From the NCBI GenBank assembly GCA_001825155.1, contig MHVH01000005.1, positions 3,528 through 67,527 on the forward strand: a stretch of DNA of 64,000 nucleotides. Reading direction: 5' to 3'. Below the pieces are notes generated by a model. That model saw only the letters and a program-made list of their open reading frames with translations. It had not been told where the DNA came from and made no database searches. A program made the translations under genes and the position numbers. Position 1 is the first letter of the stretch. Every line of letters begins with the position of its first letter. The stretch is from Candidatus Zambryskibacteria bacterium RIFCSPHIGHO2_01_FULL_46_25 (GTDB lineage Bacteria; Patescibacteriota; Minisyncoccia; Phycocordibacterales; Zambryskibacteraceae). Shown here piece after piece: positions 1,449-52,871 of the stretch.

Positions 1449-2009
1449 ATGAGTTCAGAAGTCAATATGTCCAAGTCGCTAGCTACATTTTTTCAAAAAG
1501 ACGTTTTTCCAAGCAAAAATGATAATTGGAAGGATCTTCTTTTTGAAGATCGGCTGACAGGAAAAGCTATTGTGTTTGATAATGAAAATAAAATAGCATT
1601 GGTTGGTACCAAAGTTAATTCTCTCTATCAACTTCCTGGCGGTGGAATAGATAGTAACGAATCTATTGAAGATGGTGTGATTAGAGAATGTTTGGAAGAG
1701 ATTGGGTGTGAAGTTACTCTTATAAAAAAGATTGGGGTGATTGATGATTATAGAAATAGAGATAAAAAACATTGCATTAACCACTGCTATGCAGCTAAAT
1801 TAGTTGGAGAAAAAGGCGCCCCCGCTCTTACAGAAGATGAGGCGAAAAATGGATTGCATGTAGTCTGGGTTTCTCTAGATGAAGCAGTCCAAATATTCGA
1901 TAAAGAAGTTTTACAACTGAAAAAGGGTGAAATACCTTTTTACAATACTGGTTACAATATTTTGCGAGATATATTCTTTCTTAAAGAGATGCAAAAGAAT
2001 ATTCAATGA
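1449..2009 (+). CDS. NUDIX hydrolase
   Basis: Nudix box GGIDSNESIEDGVIRECLEEIGC fits Gx5Ex7REUxEExGU. Lies in an AT-rich segment. Divergent from the histidine phosphatase gene. Confidence 0.8.
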   Translation: MSSEVNMSKSLATFFQKDVFPSKNDNWKDLLFEDRLTGKAIVFDNENKIALVGTKVNSLYQLPGGGIDSNESIEDGVIRECLEEIGCEVTLIKKIGVIDDYRNRDKKHCINHCYAAKLVGEKGAPALTEDEAKNGLHVVWVSLDEAVQIFDKEVLQLKKGEIPFYNTGYNILRDIFFLKEMQKNIQ

Positions 2010-2010
2010 A

Positions 2011-3033
2011 ATGACCAGGATCTTCCTTTTAACTGATTATCGAAGACAATTTTATTCATCAACAAAAAGTAGAGGGGGTGGAATAGACCTTATTCGATTG
2101 GCAGAATATTTTAAAAAATTAAATTTTGATTTAGTGGTGATGCCTTTTTCTGAGGTTGATCTACGAACACAAAATTATAAAAACGAATGGGTTTTATATC
2201 AATCCTCCGAAGATCCCAGTTTGTTTTATAGAAGTTATCTAGACGATATTGTCTTGGGACTATTCCTACAAGGGGCGAGGCTTATTCCTGACATCTATAA
2301 GTTTCGTGCCCACCACAATAAGCATTTTATGGAGATTCTACGAGATGTATCTGATATACCAGAAATAAAAAATATCAAGTCTGATCGCTACGGCACATAC
2401 GAAGATTATCTAAAGAATATAAATAAATTTAAAAACAATTCCTATGTATTGAAATCAAGTAATACATCAAAAAGTCGTGGAGTGTTTTTACTAAATAATA
2501 TAAAAGATAAATTAACTATACCAAGGAAAATATCTAACACTTTTTCTCTCAGAAATATTCAATACTATTTTGAAAGGTTAAGAACGGGTAAAAAACCTTT
2601 ATATATATCAAACAACCGAAAAAAATTCATTCTCCAGCCCTATATTGCCAGTCTTCAGGGGGATTATCGTGTTGTAGTGTATGGCGACAAGTTCTACGTT
2701 CTATATAGATCCAATAGAAAAAATGATTTTCGAGCTAGTGGAAGTATGATGTTTAACTATGAAATCGAATTGCCTCCTAACCTTTTAAATTTCGCCAAGA
2801 AAGTTTTTGATGGTTTTGATGTCCCATATATAGCGCTTGATATTGGTGTAAAAGATAACAATTTCTTTGTGTTTGAATTTCAATTTCTATCTTTTGGTCA
2901 ATACACACTTGAAAAATCAAAGTTCTTCTATCGACTTGAGGATAAGGATTGGATTAAGATATTTGAAGAGCCAGATCTTGAAAGAGAAATTTCTATATCT
3001 GTAATGAAGTTTATTAGTAAGCCAAAAAACTAA
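2011..3033 (+). CDS. ATP-grasp fold protein (RimK/D-Ala-D-Ala-ligase-like), function unknown
   Basis: ATG at 2011 directly after the NUDIX stop (ATGA overlap). C-terminal motifs (YRVVVYGDKFY, ALDIGVKDNNFFVFEFQ) resemble ATP-grasp carboxylate-amine ligases. AT-rich. Confidence 0.5.
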   Translation: MTRIFLLTDYRRQFYSSTKSRGGGIDLIRLAEYFKKLNFDLVVMPFSEVDLRTQNYKNEWVLYQSSEDPSLFYRSYLDDIVLGLFLQGARLIPDIYKFRAHHNKHFMEILRDVSDIPEIKNIKSDRYGTYEDYLKNINKFKNNSYVLKSSNTSKSRGVFLLNNIKDKLTIPRKISNTFSLRNIQYYFERLRTGKKPLYISNNRKKFILQPYIASLQGDYRVVVYGDKFYVLYRSNRKNDFRASGSMMFNYEIELPPNLLNFAKKVFDGFDVPYIALDIGVKDNNFFVFEFQFLSFGQYTLEKSKFFYRLEDKDWIKIFEEPDLEREISISVMKFISKPKN

Positions 3034-3037
3034 ATAT

Positions 3038-4771
3038 ATGTGCGGAATAGCTGGTTTTATAGATAAAAGTAATAAATATGATATTGCTGAGAGGGAAGAT
3101 CTTCTTCATCGAATGTTGGGCTTGATTGAGCATAGGGGAGGTGACTCTATGGGTATTAAAACTATAGGTTCGGTTACGATGGGTCATACCAGGTTATCAA
3201 TATTAGACGCAGATAAGCGAGCCTATCAGCCTATGGCAAGTGATAACACGGTGCTCTCTTTTAATGGTGAGATATATAATCACTCAAAACTTCGAAGTCA
3301 ATACTGTAAGAGTCAAAAAATAAGTTCTTACTCAGACACCTCAACACTTTTTGCTTTGTTGCAAACACTTTCGTTAAAGAAAGTACTGGCTCTAATTCAC
3401 GGTATGTATGCGTTTAGTTTCTTAGACATGAGAAACAAATCATTAAGCCTTATTTTAGATAAACTAGCAATCAAACCATTGTATTATGTAGACACTCCAG
3501 ATTTTTTTGCTTGGGCTTCAGAAATAAAAGCTTTCAAAGCAATTCCCGGTTTTAAGTTTAAGTTTCGTGATGATGGCTTGGAAGAATTTATGTGTTTTAG
3601 ATATATTGTTGGTGAAAAAACTTTATTTAAGAATATATACAAGATGCAAGCTGGTGAAATCTTAACTTTTTCGCTTAAGACAAATTTTTTTAACAAAAAA
3701 ATATATTACAAACTACAGAAATCAAAAAAACAAAGTGGATCATCCTTGAGCAGACTCTTAAAAGATAGTGTTTATAATCATCTGATGAGTGATATTCCAA
3801 CTGGAATCCAATTGAGTGGCGGGGTAGATTCTAGTCTGGTAGCTTATTTTGCCCAGAAGTTTTCTAAAAAACCACTTCATACATTTTCTATAGGTTTAAA
3901 AAACAATAAGTGGAATGAGTTTATATATTCTGATATGGTGGCGAAACTTTTGAAAACCAACCATCATAAAATAACTTTTTCAAAACGAGACTTTATTAGG
4001 TTGTTTTCAAAGCTCACCTATCATCTAGATGAGCCTATTGTTCATCCAAACACTATTCCTATGTATTTACTAGCAAAAGAAGCAAGAAAATACACAAAAG
4101 TTCTATTAACTGGTGAAGGGGCGGACGAAGTATTTTATGGGTACAACAGATATTTTCAAAAGCTTTTGAAATCAAGTAAAGACATCCTTATTTCCAATTC
4201 ATTTACTGACCCGAAGTTTGTCTCGTCTATCTTAAAAAAGTTTAACCCCGTTTTCTTGAAAAGACTAGCAATCATAAAAAATGTGGAAGGAGCAAGTATA
4301 GTCAATAGGGTGAGCTATTATGACGTTTATAGTTATTTACCACATGTCCTATTGAGGCAAGATAAGGCGGGAATGGTAGCGAATATAGAAAATAGGGTGC
4401 CTTTTCTTTATGATTCTGTTTGTGAGTACGGCTATAATTCAAAAGACAAAGTTGGAAAATATGGTGGTAAGAACTCAATTAAAAAGATCGCACTAAAATA
4501 TCTTCCTAAAGATTTAGTCTTAAGAAAGAAAATAGGTTTTGGCTTACCAATTTCCAACTGGCTGAAAGACAATAGTGGGTTTTTACCACACCTTTCTAAT
4601 TTAAAAAATCATCAAATAATTAAAAGGTATTTTATTAAAAGTGAGATTAATCAGCTTATTAATGAACATGTAGCAGAGGATAATGATCACTCAAGTATAC
4701 TGTTTACTCTCATTAGTTTGATGACATGGTATGACATTTTTATAAACACTTCCTTACCACATAAACCATAA
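3038..4771 (+). CDS. asnB: asparagine synthase (glutamine-hydrolysing), AsnB family, copy 1
   Basis: N-terminal MCGIAG (class II glutamine amidotransferase nucleophile Cys2). PP-loop SGGVDSS. 577 aa. AT-rich. Confidence 0.85.
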   Translation: MCGIAGFIDKSNKYDIAEREDLLHRMLGLIEHRGGDSMGIKTIGSVTMGHTRLSILDADKRAYQPMASDNTVLSFNGEIYNHSKLRSQYCKSQKISSYSDTSTLFALLQTLSLKKVLALIHGMYAFSFLDMRNKSLSLILDKLAIKPLYYVDTPDFFAWASEIKAFKAIPGFKFKFRDDGLEEFMCFRYIVGEKTLFKNIYKMQAGEILTFSLKTNFFNKKIYYKLQKSKKQSGSSLSRLLKDSVYNHLMSDIPTGIQLSGGVDSSLVAYFAQKFSKKPLHTFSIGLKNNKWNEFIYSDMVAKLLKTNHHKITFSKRDFIRLFSKLTYHLDEPIVHPNTIPMYLLAKEARKYTKVLLTGEGADEVFYGYNRYFQKLLKSSKDILISNSFTDPKFVSSILKKFNPVFLKRLAIIKNVEGASIVNRVSYYDVYSYLPHVLLRQDKAGMVANIENRVPFLYDSVCEYGYNSKDKVGKYGGKNSIKKIALKYLPKDLVLRKKIGFGLPISNWLKDNSGFLPHLSNLKNHQIIKRYFIKSEINQLINEHVAEDNDHSSILFTLISLMTWYDIFINTSLPHKP

Positions 4772-5655: not shown

Positions 5656-6210
5656 ATGAATACTTCAAATCGCATCGGGAAGTGGTCAGTCATTATCGGC
5701 ATTATGATTGTGCTTAACCTCTTCTTCAATTACGCTCTCTCGCTCGCTTACAAGAGCCCGGAGTACAACAATTTCTGTCCAAACGAGCAGGTTATCAACA
5801 TTCCCGATGATCAGAACGAGTGCGTGGCCCAGGGAGGCCAATGGACGGACAATGGCTACTACGGCAAACCTATGCCGGTCGGAGAAGTCGTTCCCATAGG
5901 TTATTGCGACCTCCAGTATACTTGCCGGCAAGAGTTTGAAGACGCGATGAAGAGCTACAACAGAAACATTTTCATTGTCTTGGTGGTTCTTGGAGCCGTG
6001 AGCGTCCTCGCAGGCAATTTCTTCGTTGGCAATGAGGTGATTGCCGGCGGCCTCTCGCTTGCCGGCGTGCTCTCTTTCCTCGTCGCCTCCGTACGCTACT
6101 GGAGCTCGGCCAATGACCTCATTCGCGTCATCATCCTCGCCATCGCCCTTGGACTCCTCTTCTGGATAGCGATTAAAAAATTCAACCAACGATCGACAAC
6201 CAACAACTAA
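5656..6210 (+). CDS. hypothetical membrane protein
   Basis: N-terminal and C-terminal hydrophobic helices. Competing minus-strand ORF 5686..6654 overlaps leuS and is judged spurious. Confidence 0.4.
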   Translation: MNTSNRIGKWSVIIGIMIVLNLFFNYALSLAYKSPEYNNFCPNEQVINIPDDQNECVAQGGQWTDNGYYGKPMPVGEVVPIGYCDLQYTCRQEFEDAMKSYNRNIFIVLVVLGAVSVLAGNFFVGNEVIAGGLSLAGVLSFLVASVRYWSSANDLIRVIILAIALGLLFWIAIKKFNQRSTTNN

Positions 6211-23667: not shown

Positions 23668-24186
23668 ATGGTGAATATCTTTTGGGGAGTTCTTAGTGGT
23701 GTAATTACTTCAGCCATTCTTTTTCTTCTTTTTCTTTTGAAAGAAAAAGTTTTCAATCCTTGGTTAGAAAATAGGCTGTATAAGGGAGTGATGTTGGATG
23801 GGTCATGGACAGGCAAAAGATCACGCTCTCTCGCAAGTGTAAATCCTAAAACCGCCTCAACACATGAACTAAACATACAAATGGATCTTAAACAGAGTGG
23901 TTATAAAATCCAAGGCATTTTTTCGGCGGATTCAGGAATAACAATTCAGAAGGATAAAACGAGACAATATAGTAATGTATATAGAATACATGGGCATATT
24001 CAAGATAATTTTGTTGTTCTTGAATACTATCCATTTTCCAGAAAAAGAGTTGGTATAGGGACATTCTTACTTGAGGTTAGGGAGGGTGGCAAAAAGTTAG
24101 TGGGACACGCAACCTTTGTTTCTGAAGGGGCTATGAATATCGTAACTATGCAAGACATTACTCTCGATAGGGTTAGTGAGAATTAA
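23668..24186 (+). CDS. hypothetical protein with N-terminal transmembrane helix (172 aa)
   Basis: AT-rich. TM helix at aa 8-28. No recognisable domain. Confidence 0.4.
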   Translation: MVNIFWGVLSGVITSAILFLLFLLKEKVFNPWLENRLYKGVMLDGSWTGKRSRSLASVNPKTASTHELNIQMDLKQSGYKIQGIFSADSGITIQKDKTRQYSNVYRIHGHIQDNFVVLEYYPFSRKRVGIGTFLLEVREGGKKLVGHATFVSEGAMNIVTMQDITLDRVSEN

Positions 24187-42227: not shown

Positions 42228-42677
42228 AATCCTCCCCCATAAATCCCTCCAACCCCCCTTTATCAAGGGAGGTGAATCATGAAATACAATTTTATTCCAT
42301 ATGATAAAAATCTGGTACTCCGGGCCAGAGAATTAAGAAATAATCAAACGGAAGCAGAGAAATACTTTTGGACCAATGTTCTTAAAAGTAAAAAATTCAA
42401 GACTTTCATATTTTTGAGACAAAAACCGGTTGGAAATTTCATTGTCGATTTCTACTGCTCGCGTTTGTTACTCGGCATAGAAATTGACGGCCATATCCAT
42501 GACAAGAATAGGGATAAAGAAAGAGATAATATATTAAAAGAGAAATTCGGGATTACGGTCCTTAGGTATAGAAACGAAGATGTTATGGATAATCCTGAAA
42601 AAATTGTGAAAGACCTATTGCGACAAATGAAAGGTTGATCCCTCCCTTGATAAAGGGAGGGCAGGGAGGGATTGTGT
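42228..42677. mobile_element. about 450-bp element with imperfect terminal inverted repeats (AATCC(C)TCCC… / …GGGAGGGATTGTGT) carrying a DUF559/Vsr-like nuclease gene
   Basis: Left end cctcccccataaatccctccaacccccctttatcaagggagg. Right end ccctcccttgataaagggagggcagggagggattgtgt, the reverse complement of the left end. A miniature derivative lies at 12587..12667. Confidence 0.6.
42279..42638 (+). CDS. DUF559-type endonuclease-domain protein (Vsr/PD-(D/E)xK-like)
   Basis: …RQKPVGNFIVDFYCSRLLLGIEIDGHIHD… signature of the DUF559/very-short-patch-repair-like fold. 119 aa. AT-rich. Confidence 0.7.
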   Translation: MKYNFIPYDKNLVLRARELRNNQTEAEKYFWTNVLKSKKFKTFIFLRQKPVGNFIVDFYCSRLLLGIEIDGHIHDKNRDKERDNILKEKFGITVLRYRNEDVMDNPEKIVKDLLRQMKG

Positions 42678-43913: not shown

Positions 43914-45192
43914 ATTTTTCATTGTTTTATTTGTGTTCTGTGTTCTGGGTTTTTCATCTCTTGCTCTAGCGGTTAGTCCGGCCGAGCTATCGACGCAGAT
44001 TGAGAGCGTGCGCCGCGAGCGTGAGGCTCTGGTCGAAGAGCAGACACGCCTGCAGGCGGAACTTGAGGCGATCAATCGTGAGAGCCAGTCGCTTGGTACG
44101 GCGGTCAAGTCTCTTGACGCCACAAAGAAGAAGATTGCCGCCGACATCAAGGTAACGCAGTCGAAAATTTCTTCCACCGACCTATCCATTCGCTCGCTTG
44201 AGAACAATATGGCGGACAAGGAGGAGAAGATTGGCGCGCATGAGAAGGCGATTGCTCTTGCTCTGCAATCCGTCTCGATTTACGATACGCGTCCACTCTG
44301 GGTTGATATGCTTGCCGCAACGAGTTTCTCGGATGCGTGGCGGGACAGGACTCAGCTTGAAGGCTTGAGTGCTTCTCTCAATGATGAAGTGACGAGCCTG
44401 AGAGAAACGAAAAATATTTTAAGCGAAGAGAAGAAGAAAAAGGAGGCCGCGAAGAAGCAGATTGTCTCGCTCCAAGGAGAGCTTACCGGACAGAAGACCG
44501 TTGTCGAAGAAAGCCAGAAAGCGAAGGAACGCTTGCTCGCCGAGACCAAGAACAAGGAAGCGGTTTACCAGCAGATGATCAAGGAGAATCTCGAGAGGCA
44601 GGCGCGGTTCGAGAAGGATATCTATGAACTCGAGTCCCAGCTCAAAATAGCTCTCGACCCATCACTCATCCCTGACCAACGGCACGGCTTGCTCTCCTGG
44701 CCTCTGGACAAAATTTTTGTCACCAACTTTTTCGGCAAAGTAAGCGGTGCCGCGCTTCGTATCTATGCCTCCGGCTCGCACAATGGCGTGGATTTGCGCG
44801 CTTCCCAAGGTACGAGAGTCTTGGCGATGCTTGGTGGGGTAGTAGAGGGCACCGGTAATACCGACAACCAAAGAGGTTGTTATTCTTACGGTCGCTGGGT
44901 GCTTATAAAACACGGCAACGGTCTCACTTCGATTTATGCGCACCTCTCGGCCTCTCTCGTCTCAACCGGGCAAGAGATTAAAACTGGACAGCTTATAGGC
45001 TACTCCGGCGGCACGCCGCGCACCTCTGGTGCCGGCTACTCGACCGGTCCGCATCTCCATGTTGGTCTCTTCGCGAGCCAGGGAGTCTCAGTGCGCCAAT
45101 TTACTCAGAGCATTGGTTGCAAGCAGATTGTCCTGCCCATCGCCGACATCAAGGCCTATCTCGACCCCCTTGCGTATCTGCCTTCTCTCTAA
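43903..45192 (+). CDS. M23-family peptidoglycan DD-metalloendopeptidase with N-terminal coiled coil (EnvC/NlpD-like)
   Basis: Signal peptide. Long coiled coil. C-terminal HNGVDL…HLH M23 motifs. Confidence 0.8.
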   Translation: MPNRFFIVLFVFCVLGFSSLALAVSPAELSTQIESVRREREALVEEQTRLQAELEAINRESQSLGTAVKSLDATKKKIAADIKVTQSKISSTDLSIRSLENNMADKEEKIGAHEKAIALALQSVSIYDTRPLWVDMLAATSFSDAWRDRTQLEGLSASLNDEVTSLRETKNILSEEKKKKEAAKKQIVSLQGELTGQKTVVEESQKAKERLLAETKNKEAVYQQMIKENLERQARFEKDIYELESQLKIALDPSLIPDQRHGLLSWPLDKIFVTNFFGKVSGAALRIYASGSHNGVDLRASQGTRVLAMLGGVVEGTGNTDNQRGCYSYGRWVLIKHGNGLTSIYAHLSASLVSTGQEIKTGQLIGYSGGTPRTSGAGYSTGPHLHVGLFASQGVSVRQFTQSIGCKQIVLPIADIKAYLDPLAYLPSL

Positions 45193-45204: not shown

Positions 45205-45483
45205 ATGAGTAAGAAAAAAGGATTCATTTCGACACTCCTCATCATCATAGCGGCTTTGGCGGCGCTAAAATATTTTTTGAACTGGTCCATCTTCGACGCG
45301 GCGGCTTCCGACCAGGGGCAGGGGACTATCGCTTATGTCAGAGATGTCTTGAACACGGTTTGGGCTTACATTGGTTCTCCGGTTACTTACGCTTGGTATG
45401 AAGTGGTGGTACCTCTCTTCAGCTTCGCCTTCGATTCCCTAAGGCAGCTCATAGGAGAAGGAAGAAGCGCTCTAGGACAATAA
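45205..45483 (+). CDS. small hypothetical membrane protein
   Basis: N-terminal TM helix. 92 aa. A further 38-aa hydrophobic ORF follows at 45490..45606. Confidence 0.35.
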   Translation: MSKKKGFISTLLIIIAALAALKYFLNWSIFDAAASDQGQGTIAYVRDVLNTVWAYIGSPVTYAWYEVVVPLFSFAFDSLRQLIGEGRSALGQ

Positions 45484-45629
45484 CTTATTATGCTGAAGCC
45501 TTTTAAAATAATTTTATTCTTTTTTCTTGCAGTCATATATGTTCCGGCGTATTTGCTTATGCAGTTCACTTTCTCATGGTGGTCTGGACTTCTGGGAGGG
45601 GATTGAAGCGAATACTTGGAGCTTCAATC

Positions 45630-45692
45630 GGCCGGAAGCTGACGAGCTGAGGCGGGGTCGCGGAAATTTCTAGCAAGAAATTATCCGTGACT
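45630..45692. repeat. left copy of the roughly 65-bp direct repeat bracketing the GC-rich pyrE/pyrF islet
   Basis: ggccggaagctgacgagctgaggcggggtcgcggAAATTTCTagcaAGAAATTatccgtgact. Right copy at 47642..47708. Confidence 0.6.
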
Positions 45693-45710
45693 TGATTTTA
45701 ATAATAGAAA

Positions 45711-45738
45711 GGGCCGGCAGCGCATGCGCTGCCGGCCC
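45711..45738 (-). terminator. GC-rich hairpin downstream of the pyrE-like gene (terminator or cassette-boundary element)
   Basis: GGGCCGGCAGCGCATGCGCTGCCGGCCC. Near-identical element at 46551..46575. Confidence 0.6.
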
Positions 45739-45757
45739 TCGTTCGTTCGAAACCGCA

Positions 45758-46474
45758 CTACACGGAGAACTGGTGCGCCTTGATCTCCTCCTCGACGGCG
45801 GCCACTGCTGTCTTGGACCACATGCCCAACTCGCCGTACGCGTACGTGATGTCGAGGAGGTTGTAGACGACCACGATCTTCTGGAAGCCTGCCGCAGTCA
45901 GGCGTGGCACGGCACCCTGCTGGCGATCGATCCAGATGAGGCATGGCATCTCGTGCCCGGGGTAGCCGTCTTCGATACCTCGCTCCGCTGCGACGACTTT
46001 CGAACGTCCGTCGGTCACGACGTTATCGATCCACCAGTACTGATGGCGGGCCAGGTCCGGCCGACCGTTGATCCAGACTTTTTTGTGCGCGCCGTGCTGC
46101 TTCGGCTGCTCGCGCATCACTCGGTGCCCGATCGGCTGCGCCGTCCACGCCATCTCTTTCAGGAGGCTGAGGCTGCTAAGGGAGGCCGCCTGGGCGAGGG
46201 TGTTGCCGGCCACCGGCACGCCGATGAGACATTGCTGGCGGCTCTCATCGAGGTCGGTGTTGTCGTAGACGACCCGCGCCAGCTTCAGGCCGATGAGGCT
46301 CGCCAGCTGAGGGTTGTCGGTGAGATCTTCGCGACCGAAGACGTAGACGTGCGACATGATGCCGGATGCGAGCTTGAACGGCTCATCGCTGCGTCGCACG
46401 AATCCGCACTTACTCATCATGGCGAGGATGTCAAGATCCTCATTGGTATACTTAGCGCCGGATGGGACTTGCAT
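45758..46474 (-). CDS. pyrE: orotate phosphoribosyltransferase-like type I PRTase
   Basis: FKLASGIMSHVYVF (compare FTLKSGRKSPYFFN of OPRT), LIGVPVAGNTLA, and PRPP-binding VWIDNVVTDGRS. SD GGAGA upstream. GC-rich. Confidence 0.6.
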   Translation of the reverse strand: MQVPSGAKYTNEDLDILAMMSKCGFVRRSDEPFKLASGIMSHVYVFGREDLTDNPQLASLIGLKLARVVYDNTDLDESRQQCLIGVPVAGNTLAQAASLSSLSLLKEMAWTAQPIGHRVMREQPKQHGAHKKVWINGRPDLARHQYWWIDNVVTDGRSKVVAAERGIEDGYPGHEMPCLIWIDRQQGAVPRLTAAGFQKIVVVYNLLDITYAYGELGMWSKTAVAAVEEEIKAHQFSV

Positions 46475-46550
46475 GACAGATCTCCTCTCGAAACAGGATT
46501 AAACGATACGATCTAGGGCTAGACTATCAGATAAGGAAGGGAAGTCAAAA

Positions 46551-46575
46551 GGGCCGACAGCTACGCTGCCGGCCC
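46551..46575 (-). terminator. GC-rich hairpin downstream of the pyrF-like gene (second copy)
   Basis: GGGCCGACAGCTACGCTGCCGGCCC followed by ctcgattgttgttc, paralleling ctcgttcgttcg after copy 1. Confidence 0.6.
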
Positions 46576-46597
46576 TCGATTGTTGTTCTTGCTCGTT

Positions 46598-47503
46598 CTA
46601 CGCTGCCACGAGATAGTAGGGGATGTAGAGGTTGATCTCGTCGCGCGTCTTCTTCGCCGCAGCTCCCGGATCATCCGCGAAGATGATGCCGGAAGACGAG
46701 TTGATGGCGATGGAGCCTGCACCCATGTAGGCGGCCTTGACGGTTTCCTCGACGAAGCCGCTCTGTGTGCCAATGCCGGGGATGAGGAACCACAACTGGT
46801 TGCCGACGATTTCACGCCCCTTGACGAGATGTCGCGAGTAGATCGGTTCCGATGTGTACGGGCTCTTGTGTGCGGCGCCCATGACCACGCCGGCGTTCTC
46901 GAGAACGCCAAACTCGGTCGACCAGTCGAGGATGTCCCGAACCATCGCTTCCCAGACTATGCGCACGTCGGCAAGCAGTCGGTCTTGAACTCGCCACGCC
47001 GCAGGATTGCTGGTGCGGCCGAGGCCGACCAGCGCCCGGCCGGGGTACTTCGGGTCCACAAGGGCCTTGAGCGTGTCGGAGCCCATGTAACCGTTGTAGT
47101 TCATCCCGTCGACGCCGTCGAGAAGGAAGTGAGCGTCACGGTACTGACGCTGGGTGCGGTCGATGTCACCGCGCTTGCAGTCGAGGAAGACGGGGATGTC
47201 CGGGTACTTCTCGTGGATGTAGGCGACGATGGAGCGGAGTGCTTCCGCTCCTCCCACCAGTGCCTCCCAGTGGGCGCGCTGAGGCTTGAACATGCTGGCG
47301 TAGAGAGCGGTCGCATCGACGACACCCTTCATCCAGTAGAGCACCACGGTGCCTTGCAACTCCTCCGTGATGTCTTCCCAGGTACGGCAGCCGAAGTGGT
47401 CCAGAACTGTCTGGGGCACCTTCTCGAGAAGTGGGTCGAGGCCGACGCAGAGGAGGCTGTTGACGGCGATTTGACGAGCGGTCAGTGCGGCACGGAAGTT
47501 CAT
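46598..47503 (-). CDS. pyrF: orotidine-5-phosphate decarboxylase, long (type 2) form
   Basis: LCVGLDP and FLDCKRGDIDRT (DxKxxDIxxT) OMPDC signatures. Start set at ATG 47503 with AAGGAG 8 nt upstream. GC-rich. Confidence 0.65.
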   Translation of the reverse strand: MNFRAALTARQIAVNSLLCVGLDPLLEKVPQTVLDHFGCRTWEDITEELQGTVVLYWMKGVVDATALYASMFKPQRAHWEALVGGAEALRSIVAYIHEKYPDIPVFLDCKRGDIDRTQRQYRDAHFLLDGVDGMNYNGYMGSDTLKALVDPKYPGRALVGLGRTSNPAAWRVQDRLLADVRIVWEAMVRDILDWSTEFGVLENAGVVMGAAHKSPYTSEPIYSRHLVKGREIVGNQLWFLIPGIGTQSGFVEETVKAAYMGAGSIAINSSSGIIFADDPGAAAKKTRDEINLYIPYYLVAA

Positions 47504-47641
47504 ATCTAGGCTCCTTATTGATTGTGTGCGTTTCCTGCCCGCTACATTAGCAGAATGGACGAAAATAGGGAAGTGTGGTGCTTTTCGAAAAATGGGCATA
47601 TTCCCCTACCGCTGCGGTGGGGGAGAGGAGCGAGTGCTCGC

Positions 47642-47708
47642 AGCTCCTCTCGGCCGGAACTCACGCCGGTGAGTGAGGCGGGGTCGCGCAAAAACTCAGC
47701 AGAGTTTT
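47642..47708. repeat. right copy of the roughly 65-bp direct repeat bracketing the GC-rich islet
   Basis: ggccggaactcacgccggtgagtgaggcggggtcgcgcAAAAACTCagcaGAGTTTTatgcgtgact. The internal hairpin differs from the left copy by compensatory changes. Confidence 0.6.
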
Positions 47709-47825
47709 ATGCGTGACTAGTGCAAAAGAGCGCATATGGTGTAATTCGCCAAGCTTTATCCAAAAGCCTTCTTATCCCCATAAGTTCGTTTTACATATAT
47801 TGTGCGAACCTATACAATATAGAAT

Positions 47826-48788
47826 ATGAGCCGTCCCCTGCCAATAAAAGACTACATCCTCCCCTTCCTCGATTACTGCGAGATTGAAAAAGGTTTGTCG
47901 AACAATACGCAGAAAAATTATAAGCAGTATCTCCTACTCTTCATTCGCTGGCTCGAAAAAATTAGCGAATCGGATTTAAAGCCCGAGGACCTTACCCCCA
48001 AGCATATCTGGGATTATCGGCTCTATCTGGCTCGCGGCTATAAGGCTCCAGGAGGCTCGTTTCTCGGTAAGAAGAGCCAAAACTATTACCTCATAGCGGT
48101 TAGAAGCCTTTTAAACTATTTTGCCGAACATGATATCGTTTCGCTCCCCTCTTCGAAAATAAAATTGGCGAAGCAGAAATCTGAGGAAACAATTTCTTTT
48201 CTCGACACGAGCGACGTGGAGAAAATGCTCAAGATTCCGGACGTCTCAACTTTGGGCGGTTTGCGCGACAGGGCTATAATGGAACTCTTTTTCTCATCCG
48301 GAATGCGCATCTCCGAGCTTGTGGCTTTAAACGCCGATCAACTCTCCTTTCTCTCCGACAAGAAGACTGACAAGACCTATGAGCTCTCAATCATAGGCAA
48401 AGGCAAACACATGAGAACCATCTTCATCTCTCCTCGCGCGGCCGGGTGGCTAAGACAGTATCTTAATAAGCGTCACGACGTGCATAAGCCACTATTCCTT
48501 AACTCGCGACCGGATGATGAGGACAACAATCGCCTCTCTCCCCGCTCGATACAGAAAATGATTTCGCGTTGCGCCATGCTCGCCGGACTTTCTAAAAAAG
48601 TTACGCCTCACACTCTGCGTCATAGCTATGCGACTGATCTACTCTCCCACGGAGCGGACCTCCGAAGCGTCCAGGAGCTTTTGGGTCACAAGAATGTGGC
48701 CACCACTCAGATATATACCCACGTTACCAACAAACAACTCCGCGATATCCACGAGAAGTTCCATGGTGGACAAGATATGAAGAAATAA
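47826..48788 (+). CDS. tyrosine site-specific recombinase, XerC/XerD-like
   Basis: …LRHSYATDLLSHGADLRSVQELLGHKNVATTQIYTHV… with the R…HxxR…Y catalytic signature. Confidence 0.85.
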   Translation: MSRPLPIKDYILPFLDYCEIEKGLSNNTQKNYKQYLLLFIRWLEKISESDLKPEDLTPKHIWDYRLYLARGYKAPGGSFLGKKSQNYYLIAVRSLLNYFAEHDIVSLPSSKIKLAKQKSEETISFLDTSDVEKMLKIPDVSTLGGLRDRAIMELFFSSGMRISELVALNADQLSFLSDKKTDKTYELSIIGKGKHMRTIFISPRAAGWLRQYLNKRHDVHKPLFLNSRPDDEDNNRLSPRSIQKMISRCAMLAGLSKKVTPHTLRHSYATDLLSHGADLRSVQELLGHKNVATTQIYTHVTNKQLRDIHEKFHGGQDMKK

Positions 48789-51647: not shown

Positions 51648-52871
51648 TTATTTATTCAAAATCTCAAGCGCTTTGTTCATCTGCGGATCGCGGCCGGCCT
51701 GGAAGTCCGCTGGAGTGCGGATGATTTGATAATCCGGTTCTATCCCCCTCTCCGATATTGAAAGGCCGTTTGGCGTAAGCCATCTTGCCACCGTGACCTT
51801 GAGCGAGGTCTCTGAAGTGATGTCCACGAGTTCTTGCACCGACCCCTTGCCGAAAGTTGTTTCCCCGACGAGTATGGCCCGTCCATGTTCGGCCAAGGCG
51901 CCAGCCAAAATTTCCGAAGCGGAGGCGGAACCCTTGTCTATAAGAATTACGAAATCAAGTTTCCTGTTAGCGAAGATATCATATCCCCTGCTTCTATATG
52001 CCCGCTCCTCCCTTCTGTCGCCGAAGTCCTCCCGCACGATTACCTTGCTTGCCGGCAGAAACCGACTTGCCATGTCTATGGCCGCTTCAAGATAACCGCC
52101 CGGATTGCCACGCAAGTCGAGAATGAGTTTGTCCGAGCCGGAGAGGATAAATTCGCGCAAGGCTCCGCGGAAAAGATTTGGCGATTGTTCCGAGAAGCTG
52201 TATAACTCGATAACGAAGATTCCTCCCGGAAGCGTTTTGGTATTGATAACCGGTATATTGATGACATCGCGAATAATTTTTACTTCGAAAGGCTCTTTCG
52301 TTCCGTTTCTAAAGACCGTAAGCGCCACGGTTGTGCCTCGGGGTCCGCGAATGAGCTGGACGGCATCTTCCGTAGTAAGGCCGTTCGTGTCTTTGTCACC
52401 AATTTTTATAATTCTGTCTCCCGCCAGCATACCGGCGCCGGAAGCTGGACTGCCCTTCAGAGGTGCTATCACCGTAATCGCTCCCTCTTGAGCCAAGACT
52501 TCCATACCCACTCCTTCGAAGTTGCCACGGATATCAGAGGCGAAGAGCTCTGACTCCACCGGCGGGAAGAAGACGGTATACGGGTCGCCGAGTGATGCTG
52601 CCAAGCCCTCGATAGCCCCATAGAGCTTATCTTCGTCCCCCACTGTTGCCACGGTGGTGCTTGCGGGCACGTACTTCTCATTGATGATATTCCACGTTTT
52701 CCAGAAAGGGCTGAAGTCGATGTTATCGACTTCAGCAGATTCGGCATTCTCGACGCTTGAAACGGCGCCGGAAATCCGGTTTTCACCGGAGCGGAATCCC
52801 ATGCTGTAGAAAACGAAAGCGATAATCACTCCGAGTCCGATGATAGCCCCGTGTCTTTTTAAGAATTCCAT
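51648..52871 (-). CDS. ctpA: carboxyl-terminal processing protease (peptidase S41) with PDZ domain
   Basis: …GDRIIKIGDKDTNGLTTEDAVQLIRGPRGTTV… (PDZ) and …IDLRGNPGGYL… S41 motifs. Start taken at MEFLKRHG. Confidence 0.85.
   Translation of the reverse strand: MEFLKRHGAIIGLGVIIAFVFYSMGFRSGENRISGAVSSVENAESAEVDNIDFSPFWKTWNIINEKYVPASTTVATVGDEDKLYGAIEGLAASLGDPYTVFFPPVESELFASDIRGNFEGVGMEVLAQEGAITVIAPLKGSPASGAGMLAGDRIIKIGDKDTNGLTTEDAVQLIRGPRGTTVALTVFRNGTKEPFEVKIIRDVINIPVINTKTLPGGIFVIELYSFSEQSPNLFRGALREFILSGSDKLILDLRGNPGGYLEAAIDMASRFLPASKVIVREDFGDRREERAYRSRGYDIFANRKLDFVILIDKGSASASEILAGALAEHGRAILVGETTFGKGSVQELVDITSETSLKVTVARWLTPNGLSISERGIEPDYQIIRTPADFQAGRDPQMNKALEILNK

Follow-up and report, generated by a model that had tools for sequence, protein, structure and literature searches.

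A GC-rich pyrE/pyrF segment beside a chromosomal xer gene in a Zambryskibacteria genome, read as a probable allele of an exchangeable locus

Capsule and O-antigen loci are hypervariable loci framed by conserved genes, which are switched by recombination in their flanks. A locus of comparable layout is described here in the genome of Candidatus Zambryskibacteria bacterium RIFCSPHIGHO2_01_FULL_46_25, a member of the Candidate Phyla Radiation (CPR), where a GC-rich segment of about 2 kb carries genes for a putative orotate phosphoribosyltransferase (OPRT, PyrE) and an orotidine 5'-monophosphate (OMP) decarboxylase (PyrF) next to the gene of a Xer-type tyrosine recombinase. The data comprised 64 kb of this genome, contig MHVH01000005.1 of assembly GCA_001825155.1 (the window, whose own coordinates are used throughout), and 5–13 kb per relative; the loci of relatives and of other assemblies that hold homologues or copies of a structured element are denoted by L-numbers. 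In our interpretation, the segment is probably one allele of a hypervariable pyrE/pyrF locus, replaced xenologously from related GC-richer Paceibacteria via conserved flanks, with the Xer recombinase as a bystander.

As in capsule or O-antigen switching, a conserved frame (gltX-M23 peptidase to xer-L27-L9) encloses alternative contents that serve the same functions without being orthologous and whose composition is unlike that of the frame, and some alleles are empty. However, the cargo here is a pair of core enzymes of nucleotide synthesis, encoded in a reduced CPR genome, instead of genes for surface structures, the variable slot is only 0–2 kb long, and the exchange through the flanks is a presumed one. 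Two other described systems resemble the locus in part. An integron, consisting of IntI, attI and promoterless cassettes bounded by attC, likewise has a tyrosine recombinase transcribed away from a variable gene array. Xer-dependent mobile DNA includes the integrative mobile elements exploiting Xer (IMEX), which are integrated at dif, and the pdif modules of Acinetobacter plasmids; in the window, too, variable DNA lies beside a probable, predicted Xer binding site.

The slot and the origin of its contents

The gene order at the locus is ftsW, murG, gltX, M23 peptidase, one or two small membrane open reading frames (ORFs), slot, xer and, further on, L27, L9, S41 protease and cysS, and a conserved 158-aa ORF, p158, adjoins xer. 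The frame of the slot, defined as gltX, M23 peptidase and small genes on one side and xer, L27, L9 and S41 on the other, is kept from Zambryskibacteria to Kaiserbacteria, whereas the contents of the slot are not kept. At least seven states of the slot were found, comprising five arrangements of unrelated OPRT and OMP-decarboxylase genes, an OPRT gene alone, and an empty slot. The window and L001 hold OPRT238 and pyrF301, the genes of a 238-aa and a 301-aa protein, both on the minus strand, and L078 holds the same pair with a 10-nt spacer. In L002, the phosphoribosyltransferase (PRTase) gene PRT235 is convergent with pyrF301, and in L023 and L024, PRT231 is convergent with pyrF301 beside an unrelated Xer gene (34% identity). 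The slot of L082 contains a short-form pyrF235 followed by PRT212, and that of L087–L089 contains PRT236 followed by the gene of a 257-aa OMP decarboxylase, all on the plus strand. PRT216 stands alone in L084, and the slots of L086 and L090 are empty.

The occupied slots hold pyr genes exclusively, and some OPRT gene, with or without an OMP decarboxylase gene, lies at exactly this place in nearly all relatives examined. In an all-against-all BLASTP comparison, the slot PRTases fell into at least four groups, which are unrelated or 23–40% identical, and the decarboxylases into three groups. The best match of every slot PRTase was an OPRT model, with every score under the cutoff. The flanking proteins, unlike the slot proteins, are 58–89% identical among relatives. 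The order and orientation of the slot genes also vary among genomes.

The original prediction regarded the segment as a horizontally acquired module and proposed to look for an empty site between the M23 peptidase and xer genes. Such a site is present in the two empty slots mentioned above, while other relatives carry different pyr genes there. The foreign composition was borne out, but the idea of a new capability entering a naive site was not, since nearly all relatives have an OPRT gene at this place. Because both the OPRT and the PyrF families are also widespread in CPR, this favours the replacement of one pyr allele by another from a related, GC-richer lineage, and the slot is best read as a replaceable islet at a long-standing pyrE/pyrF locus, not as a new insertion into a naive site.

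The GC content reaches 0.599 and 0.552 in the 1-kb windows of 46001–47000 and 47001–48000, compared to 0.45–0.54 in most of the window, and ranges from 0.55 to 0.675 in 200-nt windows from 45700 to 47499. The OPRT gene has a GC content of 0.621 and a GC content at third codon positions (GC3) of 0.82, and the corresponding values of pyrF are 0.619 and 0.805. The two genes rank highest among the ORFs of the window, whose means are 0.493 (standard deviation 0.056) for GC and 0.569 (standard deviation 0.107) for GC3, and the composition shifts abruptly at both ends of the islet. The GC-rich 2-kb islet noticed earlier was thus confirmed, with 60–67% GC at 45.7–47.6 kb relative to about 49% and a GC3 of 0.80–0.82 relative to 0.57, and the results support that the segment is compositionally foreign to its surroundings. 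In the relatives, the slot genes have a GC content of 0.54–0.65 and the flanks one of 0.43–0.53 in genomes of about 50% GC (the window, L082, L084 and L087); in the GC-richer L002 and L023, the flank GC rises up to 0.62 and some flanking genes equal the slot genes.

These values also bear on vertical inheritance without transfer, according to which pyrE and pyrF were always here, the variety arose as the genes were rearranged, diverged rapidly and were lost, and the GC excess is a property of the particular genes. The absence of anything other than pyr genes from occupied slots agrees with this explanation, as does the fact that slot genes are GC-richer than their flanks everywhere, in L082 mainly via codon positions 1 and 2. 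The composition of pyrF in L023, a 55%-GC genome, equals that of its neighbours, and at roughly half of the unrelated CPR loci the OPRT-family gene exceeds its surroundings in GC content, both of which point in the same direction. However, the low identity or unrelatedness of the slot PRTases and the difference in decarboxylase subfamily (type 2 vs short form) contrast with the identity of the flanks, gene order and orientation differ between genomes, the GC3 of the two genes in the window cannot be explained by amino-acid content, and the identity of PyrF is incongruent with that of the flanks. Vertical inheritance alone therefore appears unlikely.

The incongruence is found between the window, L002 and L023, which are equidistant in the flanking proteins (GltX 70–72%, M23 peptidase 58–66%, p158 62–67%, L27 64–71%), whereas the PyrF identity is 83% between the window and L002 and 67–69% in the other pairs. 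At conserved residues, the pyrF genes of the window and L002 use identical codons at a frequency of 0.69 against an expected 0.56 (z 5.7); the frequencies in the flanking genes are 0.39–0.48 against an expected 0.36–0.40. The L002 genome is GC-richer, and its GC3 matches that of pyrF in the window. The OPRT of the window is closest to that of L078 (76%), where the OPRT gene directly follows pyrF. In the window, the pyrF-OPRT spacer is 123 nt long and contains a second copy of the GGGCCGGCAGCG terminator, whereas the spacers of the closest OPRT relatives (L078 and L081) are 10–13 nt long without a terminator, which suggests that pyrF and the OPRT gene were joined secondarily in the window. With moderate confidence, the allele of the window looks like a mosaic from at least two recombination events, where pyrF resembles that of L002 and the OPRT gene that of L078.

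The source of the window is a metagenome-assembled genome, and the abrupt change in composition at both ends could also be produced by an assembly or binning artefact in which a GC-rich fragment of another organism was joined in. However, L001, an independent assembly from another data set (European Nucleotide Archive), shows the same arrangement and junctions and is 99.5% identical across 12.9 kb, which excludes a chimera for the window, and five further relatives hold pyr genes between the same flanking genes. The probability of such an artefact is negligibly small. The window and L001 differ at 66 positions, which are clustered in a few short patches (44800–45000, 46600–46800, 47600–47800 and 52400–52600), one of them at the 3' end of pyrF; this pattern suggests recent or ongoing recombination tracts or strain mixing in the assemblies.

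Xenologous replacement is preferred because the segment is GC-rich, biased in codon usage and mosaic in structure, and because relatives hold other contents in the slot. In the proposed process, the slot between the M23-peptidase/small-gene unit and the chromosomal xer gene would hold exchangeable pyr alleles, and the conserved flanks would have served, on at least two occasions, for the recombination of DNA from related GC-richer Paceibacteria into the slot. The two minus-strand genes would be transcribed separately, and their products, OMP decarboxylase and OPRT, are predicted from homology, fold and gene context to convert orotate and phosphoribosyl pyrophosphate (PRPP) to uridine monophosphate (UMP). 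Xer would be a bystander, save for a possible influence of a nearby terminus, and the repeats bracketing the islet would each be an independent copy of a widespread strand-specific element that is gained and lost at several places in these genomes, and would not serve the pyr genes as attachment sites. Understood in this way, the islet is an instance of known processes, namely xenologous replacement at a hypervariable locus, and it adds a poorly annotated OPRT family.

Several points weigh against xenologous replacement. The donor and the direction of transfer would follow from identities, GC content and codon sharing only, rather than from species or gene trees. The excess similarity between the pyrF genes of the window and L002 is moderate, and, as seen with Xer, a slow rate of protein evolution can produce a similar signal. 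The slot genes are somewhat GC-richer than the flanks in every genome, the GC3 of the L082 slot (0.66–0.69) equals that of its neighbours, and some of the GC excess may be an inherent property of these enzymes. In addition, given the nearness of a possible dif site, Xer or terminus-related processes could contribute invisibly.

The two enzymes and their expression signals

The original prediction placed a pyrE-like and a pyrF-like ORF on the minus strand, and both are present, the latter with LCVGLDP and DCKRGDIDRT in its translation. PyrF passes the curated cutoff of TIGR02127 (pyrF_sub2) with 140.2 bits against 110.6 and that of Pfam PF00215 with 61.5 bits against 27. The translation contains DCKRGD, GLDP and FKPQ, whose residues we presume to have the catalytic roles generally known for the family. 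The protein thus resembles the type-2 OMP decarboxylases of TIGR02127 in its score, in the DxKxxD catalytic motif and in the LDP motif, shows no notable difference from them, and belongs to a CPR clade whose members are 56–97% identical to it. An ORF of 333 aa at 46598–47599 is over-extended, because the homologues have 301 aa and a ribosome-binding site, GGAG, lies ahead of the ATG at 47503; two of the homologues are 97% and 83% identical to PyrF. In the upstream region, TAATGT (47544–47549, minus strand) within GCTACNTTAGCA is a possible −10 element of the pyrF promoter. According to the alignment, the flank block from TTCCCCTACCG to GGGGGAGAGG is common to the relatives, including an empty site.

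The 238-aa protein had no match in Pfam, including PF00156, and its family is without a Pfam model. Its scores against the PyrE models are far below the cutoffs (TIGR00336, 32.8 vs 106.8; NF010382, 24.3 vs 208). At least 164 protein clusters belong to the family, and the named members are almost all from CPR, with Zambryski-, Doudna-, Andersen-, Portnoy-, Uhr-, Komeili-, Adler- and Moranibacteria among the lineages. In the PDB, a profile of 25 members matched only chains named OPRT (2wns, E 2.5e-11) and one named simply phosphoribosyltransferase. The PRPP loop VDNVxTDGxSK is invariant or nearly so in the 25 members, and in the profile alignment, MRExxKxHG of the family stands against RRKETKDYG of human OPRT. 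The PRPP loop had been reported before; it is present in the window and reads WWIDNVVTDGRS, not VWIDNVVTDGRS as given at that time.

The AlphaFold model of the protein has a predicted local distance difference test score of 92 and a predicted template modelling (TM) score of 0.90. In a Foldseek search of the PDB with this model, the top 40 structures were all OPRTs, with E-values down to 6e-13 and target-normalised TM scores up to 0.84, and OPRTs ranked ahead of uracil, adenine and xanthine PRTases. In other genomes, the gene of the family (X) occurs in the order pyrD-pyrF-X in L020, L021 and L022 and in the order pyrF-X in L081, L078, L005, L010, L012 and L013. We call the 238-aa protein a divergent OPRT that fails the curated sequence cutoffs, because of the profile matches, the neighbours in fold, the operon context and the conserved PRPP loop.

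Compared to PyrE (EC 2.4.2.10, including the OPRT domain of UMP synthase), the protein shares the type I PRTase fold with OPRTs as the nearest structures, the loop VDNVVTDGxSK, the N-terminal F-x-L-x-SG-x-x-S-x-x-Y, the linkage to pyrF and pyrD, and the MRExxKxHGAH loop of its family, which aligns with the catalytic loop of human OPRT. It differs in being only 15–24% identical to solved OPRTs and in lacking the PF00156 match and the NCBIfam scores described above. Moreover, it is longer by about 30 residues, some of which form a C-terminal helix that ends in AHQF, and its family is almost restricted to CPR among named records. The claim that the steps from orotate to OMP and UMP, the last two of UMP synthesis, are encoded here was upheld, as a prediction from homology, fold and gene context. 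Among the unrelated CPR genomes with the family (L003–L022), roughly half have the gene 8–11 GC points above its surroundings of 5–10 kb. A tblastn search of the window found no second pyrE or pyrF and no relative of the pyrD linked to the OPRT family; pyrB, pyrC and carAB were not searched for.

As shown in Table 1, the two pyr genes have individual ribosome-binding sites and individual intrinsic terminators. The terminator that follows the OPRT gene could in addition end transcripts of the convergent small-gene unit, and a hairpin nearly identical to it sits after the slot gene in L084, L002 and L023. Homologues of the small ORF at the left border, 36–39 aa in length, occur at the same place in L002, L023, L084, L086 and L087.

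Table 1. Features of the islet and its borders in window coordinates
Feature	Position	Strand	Basis or remark
Left-flank small ORF, 38 aa, hydrophobic	45490..45606	+	End of the M23-peptidase/small-gene unit; outside the islet, marks its left border
Left element copy	45602..45702	+	R1 model 76.8 bits, E 3e-19; fold z-score −4.5
Intrinsic terminator of the OPRT gene	45709..45740	-	14-bp GC-rich hairpin and T-rich tail; terminator scan
Divergent OPRT (predicted), 238 aa	45758..46474	-	Profile, fold, gene context
Intrinsic terminator of pyrF	46551..46576	-	Hairpin GGGCCGGCAGCG...GCTGTCGGCCC followed by TTTT, inside the pyrF-OPRT spacer; sequence reading and repeat search
pyrF, type-2 (long-form) OMP decarboxylase, 301 aa	46598..47503	-	TIGR02127, PF00215, motif
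pyrF 5' region	47504..47620	-	GGAG ribosome-binding site, conserved block GCTACNTTAGCA, flank block TTCCCCTACCG..GGGGGAGAGG; alignments
Right element copy	47623..47727	+	R1 model 66.6 bits, E 2e-16
Invariant CTTATCCCCA followed by 24-nt imperfect palindrome TTCGTTTTACATATATTGTGCGAA	47771..47808 (palindrome 47785–47808)	.	Candidate Xer site
xer promoter, TTTACA-17-TACAAT	47790..47818	+	Promoter scan, 10/12 matches; kept in relatives
Xer-type tyrosine recombinase, conserved, chromosomal	47826..48788	+	Right flank, outside the islet

The recombinase and its candidate site

The adjacent and divergent position of the recombinase gene, noted in the original prediction, was confirmed. The best PDB match of the protein is E. 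coli XerD (1a0p), with 127 bits over the full length (residues 12–310), whereas the integron integrase IntI4 (2a3v) aligns only at residues 230–303, and the protein fails the integron-integrase model TIGR02249 with 107.6 against a cutoff of 265. It is also under the equivalog cutoffs of XerC (228 vs 335) and XerD (224 vs 330), so that it cannot be assigned to either of the two specifically. The protein is 73–89% identical across more than 120 protein clusters of Paceibacteria, which indicates a slowly evolving housekeeping gene, and xer keeps the same syntenic position in genomes of Zambryskibacteria, Kaiserbacteria and GWA2_50_10b. The high identity of Xer between the window and L002 (82%) was considered as a sign of co-transfer with pyrF and rejected, because it lies within the range of the whole group.

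As shown in Table 1, an invariant sequence and an imperfect palindrome precede xer. Both are identical in five lineages that share this type of Xer (the window, L002, L082, L084 and L086), whose Xer proteins are 79–89% identical to that of the window, while everything upstream differs. The reverse complement of the palindrome, GGTTCGCACAA-TATATG-TAAAACGAA, resembles E. coli dif, and the palindrome is a plausible candidate for dif and/or an Xer operator. It overlaps the −35 element of the xer promoter. This promoter ends 8 nt before the ATG, and the mRNA is thus probably leaderless. The GC skew within the window is +0.043 to the left of the palindrome and about 0 to the right, and the strand bias of the genes shifts there too, which is no more than suggestive. 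At the position of xer in L023 (4699–5664) and L024 (1554–2519) lies the gene of a tyrosine recombinase 34% identical to the conserved Xer, with a different palindrome in front, and recombinase and site appear to have been replaced together.

From this arrangement, the slot could have been filled by site-specific insertion through the neighbouring recombinase, either in an integron-like platform or as a Xer/dif element of the IMEX or pdif-module type. Consistent with such an insertion, the variable slot lies 0.2–0.3 kb from the invariant palindrome before xer, xer is divergent from the slot genes of the window, and empty and filled versions of the site exist. However, the recombinase is a housekeeping Xer and not IntI. 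No RYYYAAC...GTTRRRY pair was found on either strand at 45400–47830, in agreement with the earlier remark that canonical attC/GTTRRRY sites are not recognised, and the bracketing repeats are three-stem elements in direct orientation, unlike the single hairpins of attC. A second dif-like site was not found at 45400–47770, where the best match of 15/28 is at the level of shuffled sequences; the sole 28-nt copy lies at 47783–47810. In contrast to the promoterless cassettes of integrons, the slot genes are equipped with promoters, ribosome-binding sites and terminators of their own and occur in either orientation among the relatives, and, in contrast to IMEX elements and pdif modules, the variable part is not flanked by a dif-like pair and is separated from the palindrome by the shared flank block. 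Site-specific insertion is consequently very improbable, and the integron-like platform suggested by the original prediction was abandoned. A search with ARAGORN for transfer RNA (tRNA) and transfer-messenger RNA (tmRNA) targets found only a tRNA-Glu at 63.2 kb in the window.

The bracketing structured element and the significance of the locus

The ends of the islet proposed earlier, 45630 and 47708, both lie inside copies of a direct repeat of about 100 nt, which had been missed. The two copies show compensatory changes in every stem; they are 65% identical, which is no closer than to copies from other genomes. The element of about 87 nt forms a three-way junction composed of a closing stem P1, CGGCCGGAA, the hairpin P2, TGAGGCGGG, and the hairpin P3 with an AGCA loop, and ends with GTGAC. 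In the left copy, a hairpin P0 at 45602–45628, whose 5' arm contains the stop codon of the small ORF, is followed by the CGGCCGGAA junction, P2, TGAGGCGGG and a long P3 ending with GTGAC (45691), and P1 is weak with 4 bp. This copy corresponds to an insertion of about 95 nt relative to L084, where GATTGA meets the shared terminator almost directly. In the right copy, P0 lies at 47623–47651 and the junction core extends to GTGAC at 47717; its stems are GC-richer, and P1 is essentially lost. The right copy lies upstream of the xer promoter and is therefore not part of the xer mRNA.

A scan of metagenomes with two conserved junction strings gave 53 loci, about 35 of them with the full element (L027–L077), and a covariance model of the element, R1, was used for scoring. 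In a MAFFT alignment of 28 sequences, 93% of the cells pair, compared to 35–48% with slid partners, and double changes occur in 22 of the 31 pairs; none of 500 shuffles reached the observed values. In the model-based alignment of 36 copies, the pairing is 93.8%, with double changes in 24 of the 31 pairs. From the invariant G.U pairs, the active strand can be assigned; in the window it is the plus strand. When the whole window, the islet and a representative rplL-linked copy were compared with Rfam at E up to 10, nothing matched the copies except for a chance hit of 12.9 bits, and a scan of viral contigs for the motif of the element found nothing. Literature searches gave no relevant report on CPR pyrimidine genes or on a matching RNA motif.

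In at least 19 loci, the element lies directly 3' of rplL. An upstream hairpin there holds the rplL stop codon in its loop, and its 3' arm also forms the 5' strand of P1. The core is always immediately preceded on its 5' side by bases complementary to the upstream flank. Tandem second copies downstream of rplL are decaying, with disruptive mutations in P2 or P3 (L060, 607–695; L076, 5234–5320), and only the first of tandem copies appears to be maintained. The genes downstream of the element are diverse, and neither pyr genes nor recombinases lie near the approximately 35 other copies. Around the slot, the element lies after the small ORF in the window, 99 nt before the ATG of xer in the window and L084, and in L086 between the M23 peptidase gene and the one that follows. 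The copies of L084 and L086 are at different sites and have an identical P3. In the locus sequences of L082, L002, L023, L078, L087 and L090, the R1 element is absent; the upstream region of L002 is possibly an ordinary flank shared with L086 or a relic of a decayed copy. Further copies were located at 5814–5902 in L084, 5322–5406 in L086 and 29–120 in L018.

Since two copies on the same strand bracket exactly the GC-rich DNA, they might form a composite mobile unit that carries pyr genes between genomes. The element shifts position among close relatives as if mobile, and the right copy is GC-richer like the islet, as would be expected of such a unit. However, L078, with the closest OPRT allele, has the same context without the element, L084 combines the right-hand copy with another slot gene, and L002 has the related pyrF allele without intact copies. 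Furthermore, none of the about 35 other copies is near pyr genes or a recombinase, and the two copies of the window are no closer to each other than to those of other genomes. The composite unit is accordingly quite improbable. Because the element is at other positions or absent in the relatives and the two copies are only 65% identical, it does not seem to be tied to the pyr genes, and the copies appear to be independent, fast-moving or frequently copied, and not attachment sites for the pyr genes.

Other roles were considered for the element and rejected. A leader of the pyr genes does not agree with the lack of pyr homologues near other copies, with the position on the strand opposite to the pyr genes in the window, or with the right copy being upstream of both divergent promoters, and a Xer site does not agree with the lack of a recombinase near other copies. 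The core nucleotides do not fit hammerhead, hepatitis delta virus-like, signal recognition particle, tmRNA or group II domain V structures, in an informal comparison by eye with their consensus sequences.

The element is similar to repetitive extragenic palindromes and bacterial interspersed mosaic elements (REP/BIME) and to repeats like miniature inverted-repeat transposable elements (MITE) in being short, multi-copy, beside terminator-like hairpins and variable in position between strains. It is similar to riboswitch aptamers and three-stem-junction RNAs in its three-way junction, invariant junction nucleotides and covarying stems. It differs from all of these in having no Rfam match, in its strand specificity with invariant G.U pairs, in its preferred site just 3' of rplL, and in the complementarity of its 5' bases to the upstream flank. 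We tentatively propose, as a possibility that falls somewhat short of even chances, that the element and its upstream hairpin represent an undescribed class of structured nucleic acid of Paceibacteria (RNA or folded single-stranded DNA of one strand), which is normally located 3' of rplL and spreads to hairpin-adjacent sites, and pairs of copies could mark or promote the exchange of the intervening DNA. Compared to the pyr islet, the structured element is the greater novelty, and it is not specific to the islet.

Some other features of the window are compositionally distinct. A second islet at 1449–4771 on the plus strand has a low GC content of 0.32–0.34 (GC3 0.26–0.29) and encodes a NUDIX hydrolase, a 340-aa protein without assignment and an asparagine-synthase-like enzyme. 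An ORF of 172 aa at 23668–24186 (plus strand; 36.6% GC; no Pfam match) lies among genes of about 50% GC. Between murG and gltX, a DUF559 endonuclease-like gene of 33% GC (42279–42638, plus strand) is present in the window, L001, L002 and L082 and missing at the same place in L084, L086 and L023, and is thus a small presence/absence polymorphism.

CPR bacteria are assumed to rely on hosts or neighbours for their nucleotide supply. The genes described here predict that many Paceibacteria keep the capacity to convert orotate to UMP, and some lineages that from dihydroorotate. Since the slot OPRTs are below the PyrE cutoffs and the family found in the window has no Pfam model, routine annotation calls them hypothetical, and the pathway will be under-counted in metabolic reconstructions. 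The bracketing element is a well-supported candidate for a structured RNA or a mobile repeat in a group for which very few non-coding RNAs are known. The locus is a compact example of repeated core-metabolic replacement at one chromosomal address in very small genomes, and it gives a handle on gene flow among uncultured organisms.

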